The notes under the pieces are model-generated. The model was not told the DNA's origin, made no database searches, and saw only the letters and a program-made list of their open reading frames with translations. Below are positions 4,476-31,465 of a stretch of 41,536 nt of DNA, one piece after another. A program made the translations under genes and the position numbers. Positions within the stretch are counted from its first letter, which is position 1, and each line of letters opens with the position of its first letter. Source of the stretch: a virus; IMG/VR virus record IMGVR_UViG_3300045988_040573; one strand, written 5' to 3'.

Positions 4476-4907
4476 ATGACCAGAGAAGAATTCAACCAAA
4501 AGAAAGTGTGGCTATGGAGATACCAACGCAGCAGGAATCATGAACGACAGCTGCGCCAGCAGATACAAAGCGAACGTGAACGGGCAACAGCGACCACTAA
4601 AGCATTATCCCCCGTGGTGGTGTCTGCTGGCGGTAAAAATAAAATCGAGGATGCCGTTTGCAGAATCATGGAGCGTCAGGAAGCTCTATACAAGCAGATT
4701 ATTGAAACCGAAATGCAAAGGGAAGAAATCGAAACCGCAATAAACTCTGTTCAAGACCAAATGCAGCGGGACGTTCTGCGGGAGCGGTATATTGTCGGCA
4801 CCCCGTATTGGTGGAAAATTGCGATAAATCTAAATATTTCCGAGCGATGGGCAAAGAAATTACACCGCGCTGCAATTGAAAATCTGTGCACTCCAGTTCA
4901 CTTTTAA
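4476..4907 (+). CDS. Sigma-70 region-4-like late transcriptional regulator (DUF1492/RinA/ArpU-like)
   Basis: The C-terminal block QRDVLRERYIVGTPYWWKIAINLNISERWAKKLHRAAIENL is a region-4 type HTH. It is the last early gene before the packaging module, the usual place for a late activator. Confidence 0.6.
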   Translation: MTREEFNQKKVWLWRYQRSRNHERQLRQQIQSERERATATTKALSPVVVSAGGKNKIEDAVCRIMERQEALYKQIIETEMQREEIETAINSVQDQMQRDVLRERYIVGTPYWWKIAINLNISERWAKKLHRAAIENLCTPVHF

Positions 4908-5038
4908 CCTGCTATTATAGATATGCTGGATGATGTAGGAACGGAACAGACTACGGCATAGCTAAAACCTCCTTTCTTTACCATTTTAATTTCTCCTGTT
5001 TTCATAGCTGGCAGCCGGGAAAGACCGGCATTTTATAT

Positions 5039-5129
5039 GCTGCATAGCCGATTCTATCCACAAAGAATAAGGGCGCTGCGTTCCGCAAGCAACGGAGCGG
5101 CAAAGGTGCAAGACCTATGTGCAGTACCA
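5039..5129 (+). ncRNA. Candidate tRNA-like cloverleaf RNA without an anticodon loop, with a 3' ACCA
   Basis: Hand-folded. An 8-bp closing helix (5039-5046 with 5118-5125) is followed by ACCA. Arm 1 pairs 5051-5055 with 5064-5068. Arm 2 is long (5074-5099) and capped by a GCAA tetraloop. Arm 3 pairs 5105-5107 with 5113-5115. Confidence 0.3.
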
Positions 5130-5239
5130 GAGGTCGGGTAGCTCCCGAACGATGTGAGCGTGTATGGCATACCTCACCCAGAATAAAAATGCCTGCTGAA
5201 AACGATGCGAGTCGATAATCTAAGCGGGAAGCCTACCAT

Positions 5240-5312
5240 GCTGGATTATCTCAAGTGGTAGAGAACCTGTTTTGTAATCAGGGGGTTCTGGGTTCAAGTC
5301 CTCGATTCAGCA
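5240..5312 (+). tRNA. tRNA-Thr (anticodon UGU), CCA encoded at 5313-5315
   Basis: 73-nt cloverleaf. Acceptor stem gctggat/attcagc (7 bp, one G-U). D arm tctc-aagtggta-gaga. Anticodon arm cctgt-ttTGTaa-tcagg (31:39 U-U). T arm ctggg-ttcaagt-cctcg (one mismatch). Discriminator A followed by CCA. Confidence 0.75.
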
Positions 5313-5532
5313 CCAATGCCGATGATACGGGTAAAGATAGCAGGGCCGGACGCGGCAATTGTGTTCCCCGTTAGGCAACCGCCATACGCCTACTAACAGT
5401 GCGTACCATGTGGCGGATTCTGAACAGGCTTATGCTGGTATGGCTTGCCAAAGAAACTTGCAAGACAGAATGCATGAGCCTTATTTTTTAGATGTTCCCG
5501 ACATTTATGTCGGGGAGAAAGGATGGAGACCT

Positions 5533-5850
5533 ATGCCGTATGTTCCTGTCGGCGCTATCGTTGGAGCAATCCATATGCAGAACACGATTTCCAGACACCG
5601 TCGTGAGGAAGAGGAAGAAGCCAAGAAAAAAGAGGAAAAGCCGAAAAGCAAGCAGGATGTGATGCCTATGTATTTCAGGAAAAAGCCGGTTGTCATTGAA
5701 GCGTACCAGACGTGGGAAGAACTTGATATTTTTACGCTTGAAGGCGTTATGCACGCTGCTCCCGGTGACTGGATTATCACTGGTGTGAACGGTGAACAGT
5801 ATCCGTGCAAGCCGGACATCTTTGAAAAGACATACGAGCCTGTAGAGTGA
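5533..5850 (+). CDS. Small phage protein (hydrophobic N-terminus, E/K-rich linker, conserved C-terminal domain)
   Basis: RBS gagaaaggatgg lies 5-8 nt before ATG 5533. The C-terminal [13 protein letters not shown]...[28 protein letters not shown] looks like a recurrent small phage domain. The N-terminal 58 codons of the listed ORF 5359.. look non-coding. Confidence 0.55.
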
Positions 5851-5998
5851 ACAGATCGCGGCAAGCCTCTGGTGCACGCAACTTGCAAAAGCGTGCAAGT
5901 TTGTAACAAGTTTCTGAATATAAGACGGTAATGCGTTGAATGGTAACTTGCTTGTAACTTGCACACCGTGCAACACGCGCAACTGCCGCGCCTTATAT

Positions 5999-6066
5999 GC
6001 CAACATAGCTTAACTGGTAAAGCAGGGCCGTTAGGCTCAGTTCCGGGTTCAAGTCCCGCTGTTGGA
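5999..6066 (+). ncRNA. tRNA-like element with a 4-nt loop in place of the anticodon loop (aberrant or pseudo tRNA)
   Basis: Acceptor stem gccaaca/tgttgga (6 bp plus a 1:72 G-A). D arm gctt-aactggta-aagc. Stem gggcc/ggctc encloses only gtta. T arm ccggg-ttcaagt-cccgc. Total 68 nt, with no encoded CCA. Confidence 0.4.
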
Positions 6067-6426
6067 TAAAGCTGGGTCGCACCCACCGGCTAAGCCCGGC
6101 GCAGGCAAAACGCGATAGATAACCTAAACGCTGTAAGCAAAGCGGCAAGCCGATTAGGAGCGCGGCGCGATGGCAGACCGCAACGGGACTTCGAGAGCCT
6201 GAAAAAGTCTGCTCGGCATCTGCTTGTGCGGACTCCGTTACTGACGCAGTTACGCATCGCCGGAACCCATAATATCAAAGCAGAGACCGCGACCAGCGGA
6301 CGGGATATAAATAACGCTGGATTACGTTGCGGATTTGCTCCCCGCAACGGGTGAGGTCGGCACAGCATACACCGACAGGGCGGGAACGCGCTTTTCCTCC
6401 GGCGCAAAGGGGGTTTGGGGGATATA

Positions 6427-6455
6427 AGCCTACACAAATTGTGTGGGCTTTTTGT
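6427..6455 (+). terminator. Rho-independent terminator closing the RNA island
   Basis: 9-bp stem aagcctacac / gtgtgggctt with a 5-nt loop, followed by a TTTTT run. It lies about 20 nt upstream of the terS start. Confidence 0.75.
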
Positions 6456-6476
6456 ATTGTAAGGCGAGGTGATAAA

Positions 6477-6902
6477 GTGGCATCAAGAAAAAATCCGGTG
6501 GGCGCACCACCTAAATACAGAAGCGTAAAGGCAATGCAAGAAAAGATTGATGCCTACTTTGAAGCCTGCAAAGGACAGCCGTTCTTAGACGATAACGGCG
6601 AACCGATGCGAAATAAAAACGGCTATATCATCTATGACGATAAAAAGCCGCCTACTGTGACAGGGTTGGCGCTTGCACTTGGTTTTGCATCAAGGCAGGC
6701 GCTTTTGAATTACCAAAATAAACCAGAGTTCAATGACACGATTACGCGTGCAAAGACCCGTTGTGAACAGTACGCCGAAGAAAGACTATATGACAAAGAG
6801 GGCTCAGGCGGCGCACAGTTCAGCTTGCGGGCAAATTTCGGATGGCAGGATAAGCCGGAACAACAGCAGGATAGCGAGGTGCTAATCATAGATGACTTGT
6901 AA
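6477..6902 (+). CDS. Terminase small subunit
   Basis: GTG start with RBS aggcgaggtga. PTVTGLALALGFASRQALLNYQ (HTH) and the FSLRANFGWQDK block are typical of Firmicutes phage TerS. It lies directly upstream of and overlaps terL. Confidence 0.8.
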   Translation: MASRKNPVGAPPKYRSVKAMQEKIDAYFEACKGQPFLDDNGEPMRNKNGYIIYDDKKPPTVTGLALALGFASRQALLNYQNKPEFNDTITRAKTRCEQYAEERLYDKEGSGGAQFSLRANFGWQDKPEQQQDSEVLIIDDL

Positions 6903-8163
6903 GCTATCTGGCGTTGTTTCCCCTTGCTTCGCAAAAGTCCACCGTGAAATCAAGGCAGGCAATGTAAAAGAGCTTGTCGCAAAGGGCGGGCGCGGCAGTA
7001 CAAAATCCAGCTATATTAGCATAGAGCTAATTTTGCAGCTGATAAAGCATCCGCAATGCCACGCGGCGGTTTTCCGCAAGGTCGGAAACACGCTGCGCAC
7101 AAGCGTGTATGCGCAAATCGTCTGGGCAATCAATGAGCTTGGATTGCACGACCATTTTCGCTGCACGGTCTCCCCGATGGAATGCACCTATTTGCCTACT
7201 GGGCAAAAGGTGCTTTTTTTCGGCGTTGATGACCCCGGCAAGGTAAAGTCAATCAAAGTGCCGTTTGGTTATATCGGCATCTGCTGGTTTGAAGAACTTG
7301 ACCAGTTTGACGGGGAAGAGCAAATCCGAAACGTGGAGCAGTCCTGCTTGCGCGGCGGTGACTGGTTCATTACGTTCAAGAGCTTTAACCCGCCAGCAAT
7401 GGCGCGGAACTGGGCAAACGGCTACGCACTGAAAGCACGCAACGGAAAGATGATACATCATTCCACATACAAAACAACGCCCGCAGAATGGCTCGGGGAG
7501 CGGTTTCTGGCCGATGCTGAATATTTGCAGCGCACAAACGAAACGGCCTACCGACACGAGTATCTGGGCGAGGTTGTCGGTAGCGGCACAGCGGTATTCG
7601 AAAACCTGAAAATTCAACCAATCACAGACGAGCAGTTGAAAACATTCGACAGAATCAAGCGCGGCGTTGACTGGGGCTGGTATCCTGACCCATGGGCATA
7701 CAATGCAATGCACTATGACGCAGCGCGGCGCACGCTGTACATCTTCGATGAGATGACACGGCGTAGGACCAGCAACAGGGACACTGCGCAACTGCTTTTG
7801 GATAAAGGGCTGACACGTGAGGATAAAGTCTGCGCGGATAGCGCCGAGCCAAAGTCCATCGCCGATTACAACAAGTACGGTGTGAAGACATTCCCAGCCA
7901 GAAAAGGGCCAAAGTCTGTTGTATACGGTACAAAGTGGCTGCAGATGCTTGATGCTATTGTAATAGACCCCGTGCGATGCCCGGACACGGCAAAAGAGTT
8001 CAGCGAGTATGAATACGAGCGGGACGGCAAGACGGGGGAAGTACTGGAAGGCTACCCGGATTTGAACAACCATCACATTGACGCAGTGCGGTACGCGATG
8101 GAAAGCACAGCGAACAAGGCGGGAGACACCGCCGAAACCAGATACAAGAGCATTTTCGTGTAA
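6892..8163 (+). CDS. Terminase large subunit (PBSX/XtmB-type)
   Basis: Walker A AKGGRGSTKSS, a Walker B-like ICWFEELDQ, a C-terminal nuclease region with HHIDAVRYA, 423 aa. Confidence 0.9.
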   Translation: MTCKLSGVVSPCFAKVHREIKAGNVKELVAKGGRGSTKSSYISIELILQLIKHPQCHAAVFRKVGNTLRTSVYAQIVWAINELGLHDHFRCTVSPMECTYLPTGQKVLFFGVDDPGKVKSIKVPFGYIGICWFEELDQFDGEEQIRNVEQSCLRGGDWFITFKSFNPPAMARNWANGYALKARNGKMIHHSTYKTTPAEWLGERFLADAEYLQRTNETAYRHEYLGEVVGSGTAVFENLKIQPITDEQLKTFDRIKRGVDWGWYPDPWAYNAMHYDAARRTLYIFDEMTRRRTSNRDTAQLLLDKGLTREDKVCADSAEPKSIADYNKYGVKTFPARKGPKSVVYGTKWLQMLDAIVIDPVRCPDTAKEFSEYEYERDGKTGEVLEGYPDLNNHHIDAVRYAMESTANKAGDTAETRYKSIFV

Positions 8164-25674: not shown

Positions 25675-25941
25675 ATGGCTATCAAGAGTAAAGCACGGCA
25701 CGATTTAACATTGCGCAGCATCAAGCGGGAAATTGCAGCAGGACGCGATGTTGCGTTTTGGCTTGATAAGGCGTACACGCACCTTGACAATGGGCTGCTG
25801 ACCGAAGATGACATTGCCGAGGTGGAGACGCTTGCGCAGGCGTATTATGATGCGGTGGATGCGAGAGAGAGCGCAGACAAGGTTACGGAGACGCCGGATG
25901 TGCCGGAGGTTGACGGCGCTGAAAATACCACCGACGAATGA
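25675..25941 (+). CDS. Hypothetical acidic protein (tail fibre-associated)
   Basis: RBS aaaggag 8 nt upstream of ATG 25675, between the fibre and lysin genes. Confidence 0.5.
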   Translation: MAIKSKARHDLTLRSIKREIAAGRDVAFWLDKAYTHLDNGLLTEDDIAEVETLAQAYYDAVDARESADKVTETPDVPEVDGAENTTDE

Positions 25942-27200
25942 TAGGAAGTGATACCATGATTTTTAGCGGAAGAAATCTCGTGAAGTACCCGTACAGCTGC
26001 TACGGTTACACGCGCGGCGGCGGAAAGACCTGGCACGGCGGCATTGACGTCTGCGGGTTGGATGACGACAAAATCCGCATGCCCGGCTACAACGGCAAGA
26101 GCATTGCAGGAACCGTTGTTACAGCCCGCATCGTGACAAACAAGAGCAACAAGACATGGGAATGGGGCTATTATATCTGCGTGAAGCTGGACGCAAACCA
26201 GACCCCGGACGCAGTGAATTACCTGTATTTTTGCCACTGCTCCAAGTTGCTTGCAAGCGTAGGGCAGAAAGTAAAGACTGGCGATGTGCTGGCGGTTGTC
26301 GGACAGACCGGCAACGCCGCAGGCACATGGACGCACTGCCACTTTGAAGTGCGAGCCACTGCCACGAGCAAGGGTCTTGACCCGACTGCGTATGCAGGCA
26401 TACCCAACAAGGCGGGCACATACGGTGGCCAGCCTGTGCAGCCCAGCGGCGAGGAAGTTCTGATTGATGTGTCTCACCATCAGGGCGCTATTGACTGGGC
26501 AAAGGTTCCCTACCGTGCCATTGTTCGCATCGGGTATCGCGGATACGGCAGCGGAAAGCTGATGAAGGACGAGCAGTACGATGCTAACCTTGCCGGGGCG
26601 AAATCAAGCGGAAAGCTGTTCGGCTTTTATTTCTTCTCGCAGGCGGTCACAGTGGACGAAGCCCGCGAGGAAGCTGATTTCTGCGCAAGCCTTGCCCCGA
26701 CAGGCTATCCCTTGTTCTTCGACAGCGAATGGGGACACACAACCAAGACCGGCGTTCACGATGGCCGCGCCGACAACCTGACGAAAGACCAGCGCACGGC
26801 AATTGCAATGGCATTTTGCGAAAAGGCCAAAGCGCACGGATTCACGGCAGGCATTTACACCTTTACGGCGTTCGCAAGCGCAAACATCGACTACACCTAT
26901 TTGTGTGAAGATTACATCGGATGGCTTGCCGACACGCGCACGAACTACGACACGAGCCTGCCACGATACATTCACCAGTATAGCCAGACCGCAGAGGGCG
27001 GCGTGCCGGGCATCACTGGCGTGGTTGATTTGAATCATCTGGTAAAGGCTCTGCCAGCGGTGGACAAGCCCGCAAGCAAGTTACAAGTGATTACCATCGG
27101 GCCGGTGACGCAGGGCGATGCAGACGCAATCTACTTGCTGTGCAAGGAACGCGGCCTGACGGATGCCGGGCTGTACAAATCTGAATGGGCGGAGGTATGA
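25938..27200 (+). CDS. Endolysin: M23 peptidase domain plus GH25 muramidase domain
   Basis: M23 motifs HGGID and THCHFEV. GH25 block IDVSHHQGAIDWAKV...GFYFFSQ...FFDSEWG. Confidence 0.85.
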   Translation: MIGSDTMIFSGRNLVKYPYSCYGYTRGGGKTWHGGIDVCGLDDDKIRMPGYNGKSIAGTVVTARIVTNKSNKTWEWGYYICVKLDANQTPDAVNYLYFCHCSKLLASVGQKVKTGDVLAVVGQTGNAAGTWTHCHFEVRATATSKGLDPTAYAGIPNKAGTYGGQPVQPSGEEVLIDVSHHQGAIDWAKVPYRAIVRIGYRGYGSGKLMKDEQYDANLAGAKSSGKLFGFYFFSQAVTVDEAREEADFCASLAPTGYPLFFDSEWGHTTKTGVHDGRADNLTKDQRTAIAMAFCEKAKAHGFTAGIYTFTAFASANIDYTYLCEDYIGWLADTRTNYDTSLPRYIHQYSQTAEGGVPGITGVVDLNHLVKALPAVDKPASKLQVITIGPVTQGDADAIYLLCKERGLTDAGLYKSEWAEV

Positions 27201-27553
27201 TGCCGATGCAGCATGTATTCTCGTTTACGCTTGCGGAGGCCTGGGCGTTTTTAATTTACGCGGCGGGCGCTGCCGCCGGACTGTATGCCGGGGGCGTGGC
27301 CATCAGCAAAGTCATCACCGCCGTAAAAAAGCCGAAGACCGACCAGGACAAACGCATTACCAAGCTTGAAGAGCGGGTGAACGCCATGGAGGGATTCTTG
27401 AAAAACGACAAACAGCGGCTTGACCGCATGGACGAGGGGCAGCGTGTGACCATGCAGGCGCTGCTTGCCCTGCTTGACCACAATCTGGATGGAAACAACA
27501 TTGACCAGATGCAGAAAGCAAAGAAAGATTTGCAAAAGCATCTGATCGGGTGA
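27200..27553 (+). CDS. Single-pass membrane, coiled-coil lysis-module protein
   Basis: One TM segment (WAFLIYAAGAAAGLYAGGVAI) followed by a coiled coil. There are four in-frame ATGs (27185-27206) and GGAGG at 27191, so the exact start is uncertain. Confidence 0.5.
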   Translation: MPMQHVFSFTLAEAWAFLIYAAGAAAGLYAGGVAISKVITAVKKPKTDQDKRITKLEERVNAMEGFLKNDKQRLDRMDEGQRVTMQALLALLDHNLDGNNIDQMQKAKKDLQKHLIG

Positions 27554-27569
27554 AAGAAGGTGCATATCA

Positions 27570-27764
27570 ATGGGCGATTTTTTGAAAAATCTTGCAGCGC
27601 TTATCAAGGTAAAAACCATTGTAACGCTTGTGGTGGTTGCGGTGTTTGCTACAATGGCCTTGCGAGGGGCACTGCAGGCTGACACGGTCATGACCATTGT
27701 GACAATGGTCGTGGCCTTTTATTTTGGCACACAGACCGAAAGCAAGAACAAGAAGGATGAGTAA
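27570..27764 (+). CDS. Holin (two TM segments, charged C-terminus)
   Basis: 64 aa with two hydrophobic helices and a KNKKDE tail, adjacent to the endolysin. Confidence 0.65.
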   Translation: MGDFLKNLAALIKVKTIVTLVVVAVFATMALRGALQADTVMTIVTMVVAFYFGTQTESKNKKDE

Positions 27765-27931: not shown

Positions 27932-27935
27932 TTTA

Positions 27936-27975
27936 AAAGGCGCGGCTGCTTTTGTGGCCGCGCCTTTTTTATTTT
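27936..27975 (+). terminator. Rho-independent terminator (end of the late operon)
   Basis: 8-bp GC stem ggcgcggc/gccgcgcc followed by TTTTTTATTTT. Confidence 0.8.
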
Positions 27976-31426: not shown

Positions 31427-31465
31427 AAATGCCGTAGATTGTAACGAATCTACGGCATTTGTTTT
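31427..31465 (+). terminator. Rho-independent terminator ending the moron cassette
   Basis: 14-bp stem aaatgccgtagatt/aatctacggcattt, loop gtaacg, then gTTTT. Confidence 0.75.

Follow-up and report, generated by a model that had tools for sequence, protein, structure and literature searches.

This analysis concerns a 41,536-nucleotide stretch of viral DNA (IMG/VR record IMGVR_UViG_3300045988_040573; hereafter, the window) and, within it, a 1.57-kb island at 4908-6476 that separates the gene for a late regulator of the DUF1492 family from the terS gene. Genes on both flanks overlap or abut in the map of open reading frames (ORFs), and all RNA features of the island lie on the + strand between these two genes. 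With moderate confidence, we read the island as a genuine, largely non-coding leader of the late operon that holds exchangeable RNA modules. The anatomy of the island, its conservation and mosaic pattern, the covariation of its stems, the signature of its promoter and the presence of a D12-methyl RNA at the head of the late operon are well supported. An earlier note on this DNA had described a nearly ORF-free, structure-rich RNA island with one good tRNA, tRNA-like elements, recurring short blocks and a strong terminator in front of terS. All the items that it listed were found at or close to where it had placed them; it had overlooked the D12-methyl RNA and an extended -10 promoter directly behind the regulator gene. 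The term "structure-rich" holds on comparative evidence, and the minimum free energy (MFE) z-scores of large segments (-1.1 and -1.5) are not significant, so that this part of the description rests on comparison and not on thermodynamics.

Relatives of the island were collected from IMG/VR by an exact-pattern scan for the core of the D12-methyl RNA and by a terS-based scan, which gave 196 loci. The compared islands are 102 unique sequences chosen for having both ends, that is, the side of the promoter and the hairpin T1 and the side of D12-methyl and the terminator T2. Nearly all relatives have promoter, leader and T1 at one end and D12-methyl and terminator at the other; a few lack D12-methyl. 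Both ends are conserved and the middle is variable. Window-like DNA is widely present at 5001-5150 and at 6051-6460, and in only 6 of the 196 loci does it extend over the small coding sequence (CDS) at 5533-5850. Across about 100 related gut-phage contigs, the island ranges from 237 to 1467 nucleotides (nt), with a commonest form of about 690-740 nt, and the modules between its ends (Table 1) appear to have been swapped between related phages by recombination at common hairpin-UUUUAUAU-G joints.

This mosaic pattern bears on a kinship, hinted at in the earlier note, with the large ornate RNAs ROOL and GOLLD. These are likewise non-coding and lie next to tRNAs in Firmicutes prophages (PMC5737381), and the commonest version of the island, at about 690 nt, is of comparable size. 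However, each module can be present or absent without the others, and the smallest island spans 237 nt, so the island is not one large RNA, but a chain of independent small modules without a predicted long-range helix linking its ends. Covariance models of ROOL and GOLLD gave no match at E<=10 in 4700-6700 on both strands, and none at gathering score anywhere in the window. A single ornate RNA that folds as a unit is thereby largely refuted, and we consider it highly improbable. Of the other families looked for, tmRNA was found neither by ARAGORN nor by Rfam, Y RNA/YrlA had no Rfam match at E<=10, and the permissive Rfam scan (E<=10) yielded no credible additions. No Ro60-like family was found among the window ORFs scanned against PHROGs and Pfam, which represent part of the window's genes.

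The best-supported new RNA of the island is TLE-1, a tRNA-like RNA that the earlier note had seen near 5034 and whose limits are now refined (Table 1). It has an acceptor stem of 7 bp (with G1.U72), a long D-like arm, a T-like arm with the loop UGCAAGA, and, at the anticodon position, a 6-bp arm with a loop of 12-13 nt. Its 3' end consists of a discriminator A, which in relatives is A or U, and an encoded CCA (5127-5129). In an alignment of 30 sequences (A1), the four-arm structure pairs in 93.6% of cells, compared with 28-48% for controls with slid partners. Both bases change in nine pairs, and none of 500 shuffles attains the observed values; RNAalifold arrived independently at the same junction and fold. 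A second alignment of 53 distinct sequences (A2) shows compensatory changes in 14 of 25 pairs, counts that overstate the number of independent events, since the sequences are related to one another and were aligned by fitting to the model. The acceptor stem alone is found in the compensatory versions GCUGCAU/GUGCAGU, GCCGCAU/GUGCGGC and GCUAUAC/GUAUAGC.

A covariance model built from A1 scores the window copy (5031-5129) at 104 bits; the next-best match in the window is the tRNA-Thr, and the second tRNA-like element, TLE-2, ranks lower, among chance-level matches. Within the first 100 D12-anchored loci, the same model has 86 matches, and a few of these loci have two copies. TLE-1 has no Rfam tRNA match at E<=10, is not called by ARAGORN and lacks the cloverleaf with a 7-nt anticodon loop, which makes it tRNA-like and not a tRNA. 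In relatives, the arm at the anticodon position is absent from a 57-nt version (loci L144 and L072) and shortened in another (L106). Because this arm is non-standard, missing or shortened, TLE-1 is unable to decode. Some islands contain two tandem TLE-1 copies of different subtypes, and some contain two units of the pseudoknot-type module PK before D12-methyl (noted in L001, at 7674-7763 and 7905-8017, and in L067).

The cloverleaf with a 7-nt anticodon loop and a call by a tRNA finder is present at 5240-5315 only, the Thr-UGU gene that had been named as the single good tRNA. Cargo tRNAs of other islands are Thr-UGU, Thr-CGU, Trp, Gly or an odd 86-nt tRNA, and many islands have no canonical tRNA. 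More widespread is a 58-nt mini-tRNA without an anticodon arm, in which 8-9 nt link the canonical acceptor, D and T arms; it is 96-100% identical between islands, while its flanks vary. In the sequences examined, it occupies the same slot as TLE-2, directly upstream of the structured block B1. TLE-2 combines canonical D and T arms with the sequence GGCC-GUUA-GGCU (a short stem and a 4-nt loop) in place of the anticodon arm, a G1:A72 mismatch and a missing CCA; it was not called by ARAGORN, lacks the 7-nt anticodon loop and is classed as tRNA-like only. Together with TLE-1, it accounts for the claim of at least two tRNA-like elements without a normal anticodon loop. It looks like a private derivative of an 86-nt tRNA-like sequence seen in locus L171. 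RNAs of this kind, 84-86 nt in length with a long extra arm, are found in L171, L168, L011 and others (e.g. L008 1091-1174), and the first 25 bases of TLE-2 are common with them; ARAGORN calls them "His (atg)", and their loop CUUAUGA would fit the anticodon UAU better.

The recurring short blocks that the earlier note had taken for a family of related modules are genuine, and the existence of reusable, related structured modules is supported. The repeat "tatatgc..catagc" corresponds to the U-rich leader, the acceptor strand and the U8A9-GC of two tRNA-like units, and the blocks "ggtaaag/gcagggccg/gttaggc" are common to TLE-2 and the structured module X.

The same elements could also be taken as a graveyard scarred by recombination, where tRNA genes and hairpins decay and the live tRNA and the moron gene at 5533-5850 would be the only functional parts. 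The strongly mosaic content, the dispensability of several modules, truncated TLE-1 copies (e.g. in L089), and the unique TLE-2 with its 1:72 mismatch and absent CCA are in line with such decay. It does not sit well, however, with the compensatory changes by which the 7-bp acceptor stem, discriminator and CCA of TLE-1 are kept across 53 distinct sequences, with the near identity of the mini-tRNA in 55 islands amid varying flanks, with compensatory variants in many other stems, or with the presence of D12-methyl, a curated conserved family. We therefore regard a graveyard as doubtful.

The 3' end of the island is formed by the D12-methyl RNA, which consists of two hairpins, a GGGUGAG linker and a G-rich AGGGCGGGAACG tail. 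Its membership of RF02950 is indicated by the score, which ranges from 78 to 95 bits in relatives, and by compensatory pairing in both hairpins: P1 is found as GCGG/CCGC, GCAG/CUGC and GCAAAG/CUUUGC, and P2 as ACCGG/CCGGU (43), GUCGG/CCGAC (42) and CCCGG/CCGGG (11). The family reportedly stems from the 2017 screen by Weinberg and colleagues and is said to be named for its location upstream of D12-class N6-adenine DNA methyltransferase genes. In the window, the next gene is terS, and in relatives it is terS, a ParB-methylase, a D12 Dam methylase, a terL-like gene, portal or another gene. Since the first downstream gene varies, D12-methyl marks the start of the late block and not a methylase gene. 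The element described here thus shares with the known family the full 64-nt model and, in some relatives, a position before D12-class Dam methylase genes, but it lies before terS, usually with an added tail hairpin and terminator, and behind a promoter and an island of RNA cargo. The name D12-methyl is absent from searchable full texts, and its position at a late-operon head, with tail hairpin or terminator and behind a promoter and RNA-cargo island, was not found in the accessible literature.

The strong terminator reported in front of terS was recovered by the terminator scan as T2, about 20 nt upstream of the terS start; its stem is found as CUACAC/GUGUGG (67) and in the compensatory variant UCAUGC/GCAUGG (5), and the segment 6320-6460 has an MFE z-score of -2.85. 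Among 99 unique D12 contexts, 69 contain the tail hairpin (CCUCC/GGGGG) and T2, and the remaining 30 have no terminator and a start codon about 45 nt downstream. Three natural deletion variants (L125 at 4880-5000, L126 and L218) have the same terS and lack block B1, the pseudoknot-type module PK, D12-methyl and T2, so that the mini-tRNA and about 40 nt are joined straight to the ribosome-binding site of terS. These deletions imply that D12-methyl and T2 are dispensable, and that late transcription of terS must enter via the island from upstream. Between T2 and terS, no sigma-70 promoter was found, and no -10 signature is kept in relatives. A stretch of the leader, AAACCUCCUUU (4965-4975), and AAAGGGGGUUU at 6406-6416, within the tail of D12-methyl, are complementary over 11 bp with one G.U pair; both are of low complexity and invariant, and the D12 tail also has its own UUUUCCUCC.

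Strong sequence conservation directly upstream of terS might also be expected if the conserved 3' part acted as DNA, as a pac/cos packaging site or an operator of the regulator. Yet the same element stands before different terminase types and before non-terminase genes, it is absent from some phages with the same terS, and its compensatory stem substitutions are a signature of RNA pairing; no contig end was noticed at the element, although contig ends were not systematically examined. In view of the compensatory stems, the varied downstream genes and the natural deletions, a DNA site of either kind was rejected, and we attach almost no probability to it.

A further alternative, which we consider unlikely, takes D12-methyl as a riboswitch-like or protein-binding sensor whose state would control T2 or, at the first late gene, the ribosome-binding site. 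The use of the same 64-nt element on two platforms, a terminator in 69 contexts and a nearby start codon in 30, is a pattern typical of cis-regulation, its stems covary while its loops and tail are nearly invariant, and a kissing contact could form between the loops of P1 (UUGCU) and P2 (AGCA). By inspection, however, no convincing antiterminator pairing was seen between D12-methyl and T2, the gene context suggests no ligand or partner because the downstream genes differ, and the family is classed as a small RNA by Rfam.

At the 5' end, the extended -10 promoter was examined in an alignment of the 170 nt upstream of the first hairpin from all loci, which comprised 72 unique sequences. T1, A2 and T6 of the hexamer are kept in 71 of them and the TG one base 5' of the hexamer in 67, and changes are confined to tolerated positions, giving six variants (TATTAT, TAACAT, TACAAT, TATAAT, TATACT and TAAAAT). 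Transcription is predicted to start at about 4925, the G of GCTGG. A search of the + strand within the island revealed no promoter of the sigma-70 type. The promoter and leader are kept behind two unrelated small genes, the DUF1492 regulator gene and one for a 129-amino-acid phrog_11237 protein, and the -35 region lies inside the 3' end of each preceding gene, which would fit a regulator-specific binding site there; such a site probably lies in or beside the 3' end of the regulator gene. The 129-amino-acid gene precedes the promoter in about half of the relatives. In the window (4880-4925), the -35 region within the regulator gene holds the direct repeats GCACT-N5-TCACT.

In the leader that follows, the 5' hairpin is kept with changed sequence in relatives (GUAGG/CCUAC, CUGUAA/UUACAG and GCUCU/AGAGC), and fold predictions leave the pyrimidine-rich stretch CAUAGC-AAAACCUCCU unpaired. 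The terminator scan places the T1 hairpin and U-run at 5014-5029 and rates it weaker than T2; its stem is found as GCCGG/CCGGC (61), as the double compensatory GCCCG/CGGGC (10) and as GCCCG/TGGGC (1). T1 occurs in each of the 102 compared islands, whose selection was anchored on this end. TLE-1 starts directly after the U-run of T1, and a GC hairpin with UUUAUAU similarly stands in front of both the mini-tRNA and TLE-2. T1 would be either a weak terminator or a 3'-end/processing hairpin just before TLE-1.

Among the closest known arrangements is that of the Ltr (RinA/ArpU/DUF1492) late activators of Gram-positive phages, in which DUF1492 family proteins activate transcription of terS and the region between ltr and terS holds a terminator, upstream of the terS promoter (PMC3753634). 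The window shares with this layout (Quiles-Puchalt 2013) the DUF1492 regulator directly upstream of the terS control region and the intergenic hairpin terminator; its sole conserved promoter signature, however, lies upstream of the hairpin. It differs in that the intergenic region spans 1.57 kb and is filled with RNA genes, compared with a short spacer in the Ltr systems, and in that the same promoter and leader also occur behind the unrelated phrog_11237 gene.

From these features, we infer a mechanism that comprises co-transcription, processing, a gate function and possibly a role for the anticodon-less tRNA mimics, and to which we give about an even chance: the late operon would have a transcribed leader into which RNA genes are slotted and which tRNA-processing enzymes dice, with D12-methyl and T2 as an optional gate. 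Transcription would start at the extended -10 promoter behind the late-regulator gene, and the transcript would pass through the short pyrimidine-rich leader and the weak hairpin T1. It would then run through TLE-1, the tRNA-Thr, small structured modules, the moron CDS, TLE-2 and a structured block of about 260 nt, and finally reach D12-methyl and the strong terminator T2. The tRNA-shaped units may be recognised by RNase P and 3' tRNA-processing enzymes, and processing would free the tRNA and cut the leader into individual small RNAs whose ends are protected by hairpins. D12-methyl and T2 would form a dispensable gate that sets how many polymerases or ribosomes reach the packaging genes. No phage-encoded tRNA-handling enzymes were found among about 30 of the window's 50-60 ORFs, a scan outside of which most head and tail genes lie.

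Another possible role of D12-methyl, which we likewise judge improbable, is that of a put-like, protein-independent processive antiterminator that carries polymerase past T2 and past the terminators further along the 21-kb late operon, with the rest of the island as passenger. The put RNAs of phage HK022 are about 70 nt long and fold into two stem-loops; located downstream of a promoter, they need no protein factors for their action (PMC9378689). D12-methyl, at 64 nt, with two stem-loops, a strongly conserved sequence and a position at the late-operon head, stands about 37 nt before a strong terminator in 70% of contexts. In the Gram-positive conAn system, long terminator stems resist processive antitermination (PMC10325885), and the late operon of the window closes after the holin gene with terminators of very long stems (14 and 15 bp), which by analogy would be compatible with a put-like role. 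Against it, terS to holin holds one modest terminator-like site on the + strand (14063), which leaves little to antiterminate, 30% of D12 contexts are without a terminator, some relatives have neither D12-methyl nor T2, and D12-methyl has no sequence similarity to put, the likeness being one of form alone (64 nt, two hairpins, before a terminator).

Several points also weigh against the view of the island as a processed and gated late leader. The start site, co-transcription and processing are deduced from DNA and not from transcripts, and an extended -10 promoter may need no activator. T1 lies downstream of the proposed promoter, in the opposite order to the studied Ltr systems, and the promoter might therefore drive only a short RNA that ends at T1. 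With D12-methyl and T2 dispensable in some phages, their role as a gate is at most modulatory. The sampled relatives are close (terS 88-99% identical) and mosaic, so that compensatory "events" are few and not independent, as the count tool warns. Finally, TLE-2 is unique to the window and possibly a decayed copy, and large segments of the island are unremarkable in their MFE z-scores.

Phage tRNA clusters with small stable RNAs are known, as in the tRNA region of T4 with its species 1 and 2 RNAs, and lambdoid Stx phages carry tRNA genes between the late promoter and the late genes. The island resembles these clusters in that tRNA and tRNA-like RNAs share a non-coding stretch under late or middle control, with presumably RNase P-type release. 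Unlike in them, the predominant conserved units lack an anticodon arm or loop, TLE-1 has an encoded CCA, and the region is bounded by a specific promoter and leader and by D12-methyl. A late leader that is terminated close to its promoter is likewise familiar from PR'-tR' of lambda. With this leader and with put of HK022, the island shares a short two-hairpin RNA or terminated leader placed between a late or early promoter and an extended operon; the sequences are unrelated, the hosts belong to another clade (Clostridia), the element is dispensable in some relatives and the likeness is in form only. Compared with other tRNA-like processing signals and mimics (mascRNA-type punctuation, bacterial YrlA and viral tRNA-like structures), TLE-1 similarly imitates acceptor and T-arm without decoding and is a plausible substrate of RNase P/Z, but it has a normal 5'-to-3' cloverleaf and an encoded CCA, and is neither a permuted Y-RNA module nor the 3' end of an RNA genome.

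The orphan motif D12-methyl gains a precise setting, at the 3' end of a late-operon leader and followed by a terminator or the first late gene, and moves from "function unknown" to two or three testable mechanisms. At least one well-supported new structured RNA emerges, the cloverleaf TLE-1 with acceptor stem and CCA but no anticodon, together with a companion mini-tRNA that is common in gut Oscillospiraceae (Gemmiger-type) phages. Such anticodon-less mimics are relevant to questions of phage tRNAs and of tRNA-targeting defence, and the island illustrates the cassette-like shuffling of RNA genes within one phage lineage. A bolder, and in our estimate unlikely, extension would make TLE-1 and the mini-tRNA a new class of phage-encoded tRNA mimics that lack an anticodon, are produced in bulk from the late leader and act on the tRNA-handling machinery instead of in decoding, with D12-methyl as a Firmicutes counterpart of put that licenses polymerase into the packaging genes. 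The mimics could be decoys for host defence toxins or nucleases directed at the acceptor end or T-arm, or CCA-end substrates charged for non-ribosomal use.

Table 1. Features of the island and its flanking genes, with the number of other compared islands (of 102) in which a feature is present
Feature	Position	Strand	Basis and details	Other islands
Late regulator gene (DUF1492/LtrB, RinA-like)	4476..4907	+	Pfam PF07374, E 5e-8; flank only, outside island	
Extended -10 promoter, TGnTAnnAT	4910..4918 (TG 4910-4911, TATTAT 4913-4918)	+	Directly after regulator stop codon	
Short leader	4925..5013	+	5' hairpin GUAG 4935-4938/CUAC 4951-4954, then CAUAGC-AAAACCUCCU	
T1	5014..5038	+	5-bp GC hairpin GCCGG GAAAGA CCGGC, then AUUUUAUAU; terminator scan	
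TLE-1, tRNA-like RNA	5039..5129	+	Covariation, RNAalifold, covariance model	74/102
Linker, small hairpins (e.g. GUGAG..CUCAC)	5130..5239	+	Predicted fold	
tRNA-Thr (anticodon UGU), encoded CCA	5240..5315	+	ARAGORN; Rfam RF00005, 52.5 bits	6/102
Module X	5316..5420	+	Hairpin ACGGG..CCCGU, then stem CCGCCA (5379-5384)/UGGCGG (5411-5416)	21/102
Small moron CDS, PGDYG-domain protein, 105 amino acids	5533..5850	+	PHROG 419, E 2e-28	3/102
Module Y, non-coding	5851..5998	+	Four AACTTGC/GCAAGTT copies; read from sequence	14/102
TLE-2, degenerate tRNA-like	5999..6067	+	Rfam tRNA, 35.5 bits; anticodon region deleted	0/102
58-nt mini-tRNA				55/102
Conserved structured block, three parts	6068..6324	+	RNAalifold	
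B1a, closed multi-stem domain	6068-6215	+		67/102
B1b, long hairpin	6219-6284	+		59/102
PK, pseudoknot-type module	6285-6320	+	S1 CCG/CGG; S2 CCAGCG 6293-6298/CGCUGG 6315-6320; loop GGAUAUAAAU	
D12-methyl RNA (Rfam RF02950)	6325..6388	+	92.2 bits (gathering score 57), E 7e-16, model 1-64/64	
Tail hairpin (UUUUCCUCC..GGGGG) and terminator T2	6389..6455	+	Stem 6426-6450, 11 bp; T-run to 6455	
terS	6477-6902	+	GTG start; PF16677	
terL	6892-8163		Downstream of terS; followed by portal	

The remaining modules vary in their distribution and structural features. The linker version of the window is found in only 5 other islands, and relatives have different hairpins at this place. Module X, which always follows a CCA end, has a long stem that encloses the conserved loop GCCUACURACAGUGCG; its outer stem occurs in three compensatory versions (CCGCCA/UGGCGG, CCCCGC/GCGGGG and CAGCUAC/GUAGCUG), and its MFE z-score is -2.3. 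Module Y ends in a GC hairpin and UUAUAU, and in locus L117 it stands directly after the CCA of TLE-1. In the PK module, at least five complementary versions of S2 were found (CCAGCG/CGCUGG, AUCCGC/GCGGAU, AACC/GGUU, UUUCCU/AGGAAA and CCUG/CAGG), and one or two PK units lie just upstream of D12-methyl in relatives. The A-rich GGAUAUAAAU was considered as a -10 box and rejected; because T is never kept at position 6 of the hexamer and the flanks covary, it is read as an RNA loop. B1a gives repeated full-length but sub-threshold matches to the Rfam model group-II-D1D4-4 (17-28 bits, compared with a gathering score of 49), at 6041-6188 in the window, 4606-4712 in L130 and 1190-1296 in L008. Models of group II domains 5/6 have no Rfam match anywhere, and with sub-threshold D1-D4 matches only and no D5, a group II intron relic was rejected.

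As to coding capacity, the island is ORF-poor, as the earlier note had stated, and the sole ORF with protein homologs is 5533-5850, which has blastn matches to phage proteins and a weak, below-cutoff match to Pfam PF14083 (PGDYG; E 3e-4). Hidden coding elsewhere was rejected: the remaining ORFs are interrupted in relatives, and indels are not multiples of three. The minus-strand ORF 6090-6437 is open in just 10 of the 102 islands. On the minus strand at 4904-5005, seeming ribosome-binding sites (AGGAGG) are the reverse complement of CCUCC tracts of the leader, and the small ORFs behind them are unconserved (2 codons in the window, 13 in L130).

Among species-representative host genomes, the strict D12 and TLE-1 patterns match one uncultured Gemmiger metagenome-assembled genome only; a looser D12 pattern gave chance-level matches only, and the mini-tRNA pattern had no match. 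Among cultured phages, INPHARED has matches to the tRNA-Thr and PGDYG only, and none of its phages has the other modules of the island.

The product of the regulator gene matches PHROG 36/248 (transcriptional regulator/activator), and its match to TIGR01636 (rinA) is weak. The late operon covers packaging, head, tail and lysis, with endolysin and holin at 25938-27553, and the long-stem terminators at its end lie at 27686-27716 and 27935-27968, just after holin. A bidirectional 14-bp terminator is found further downstream at 31427-31460, before the integrase gene.

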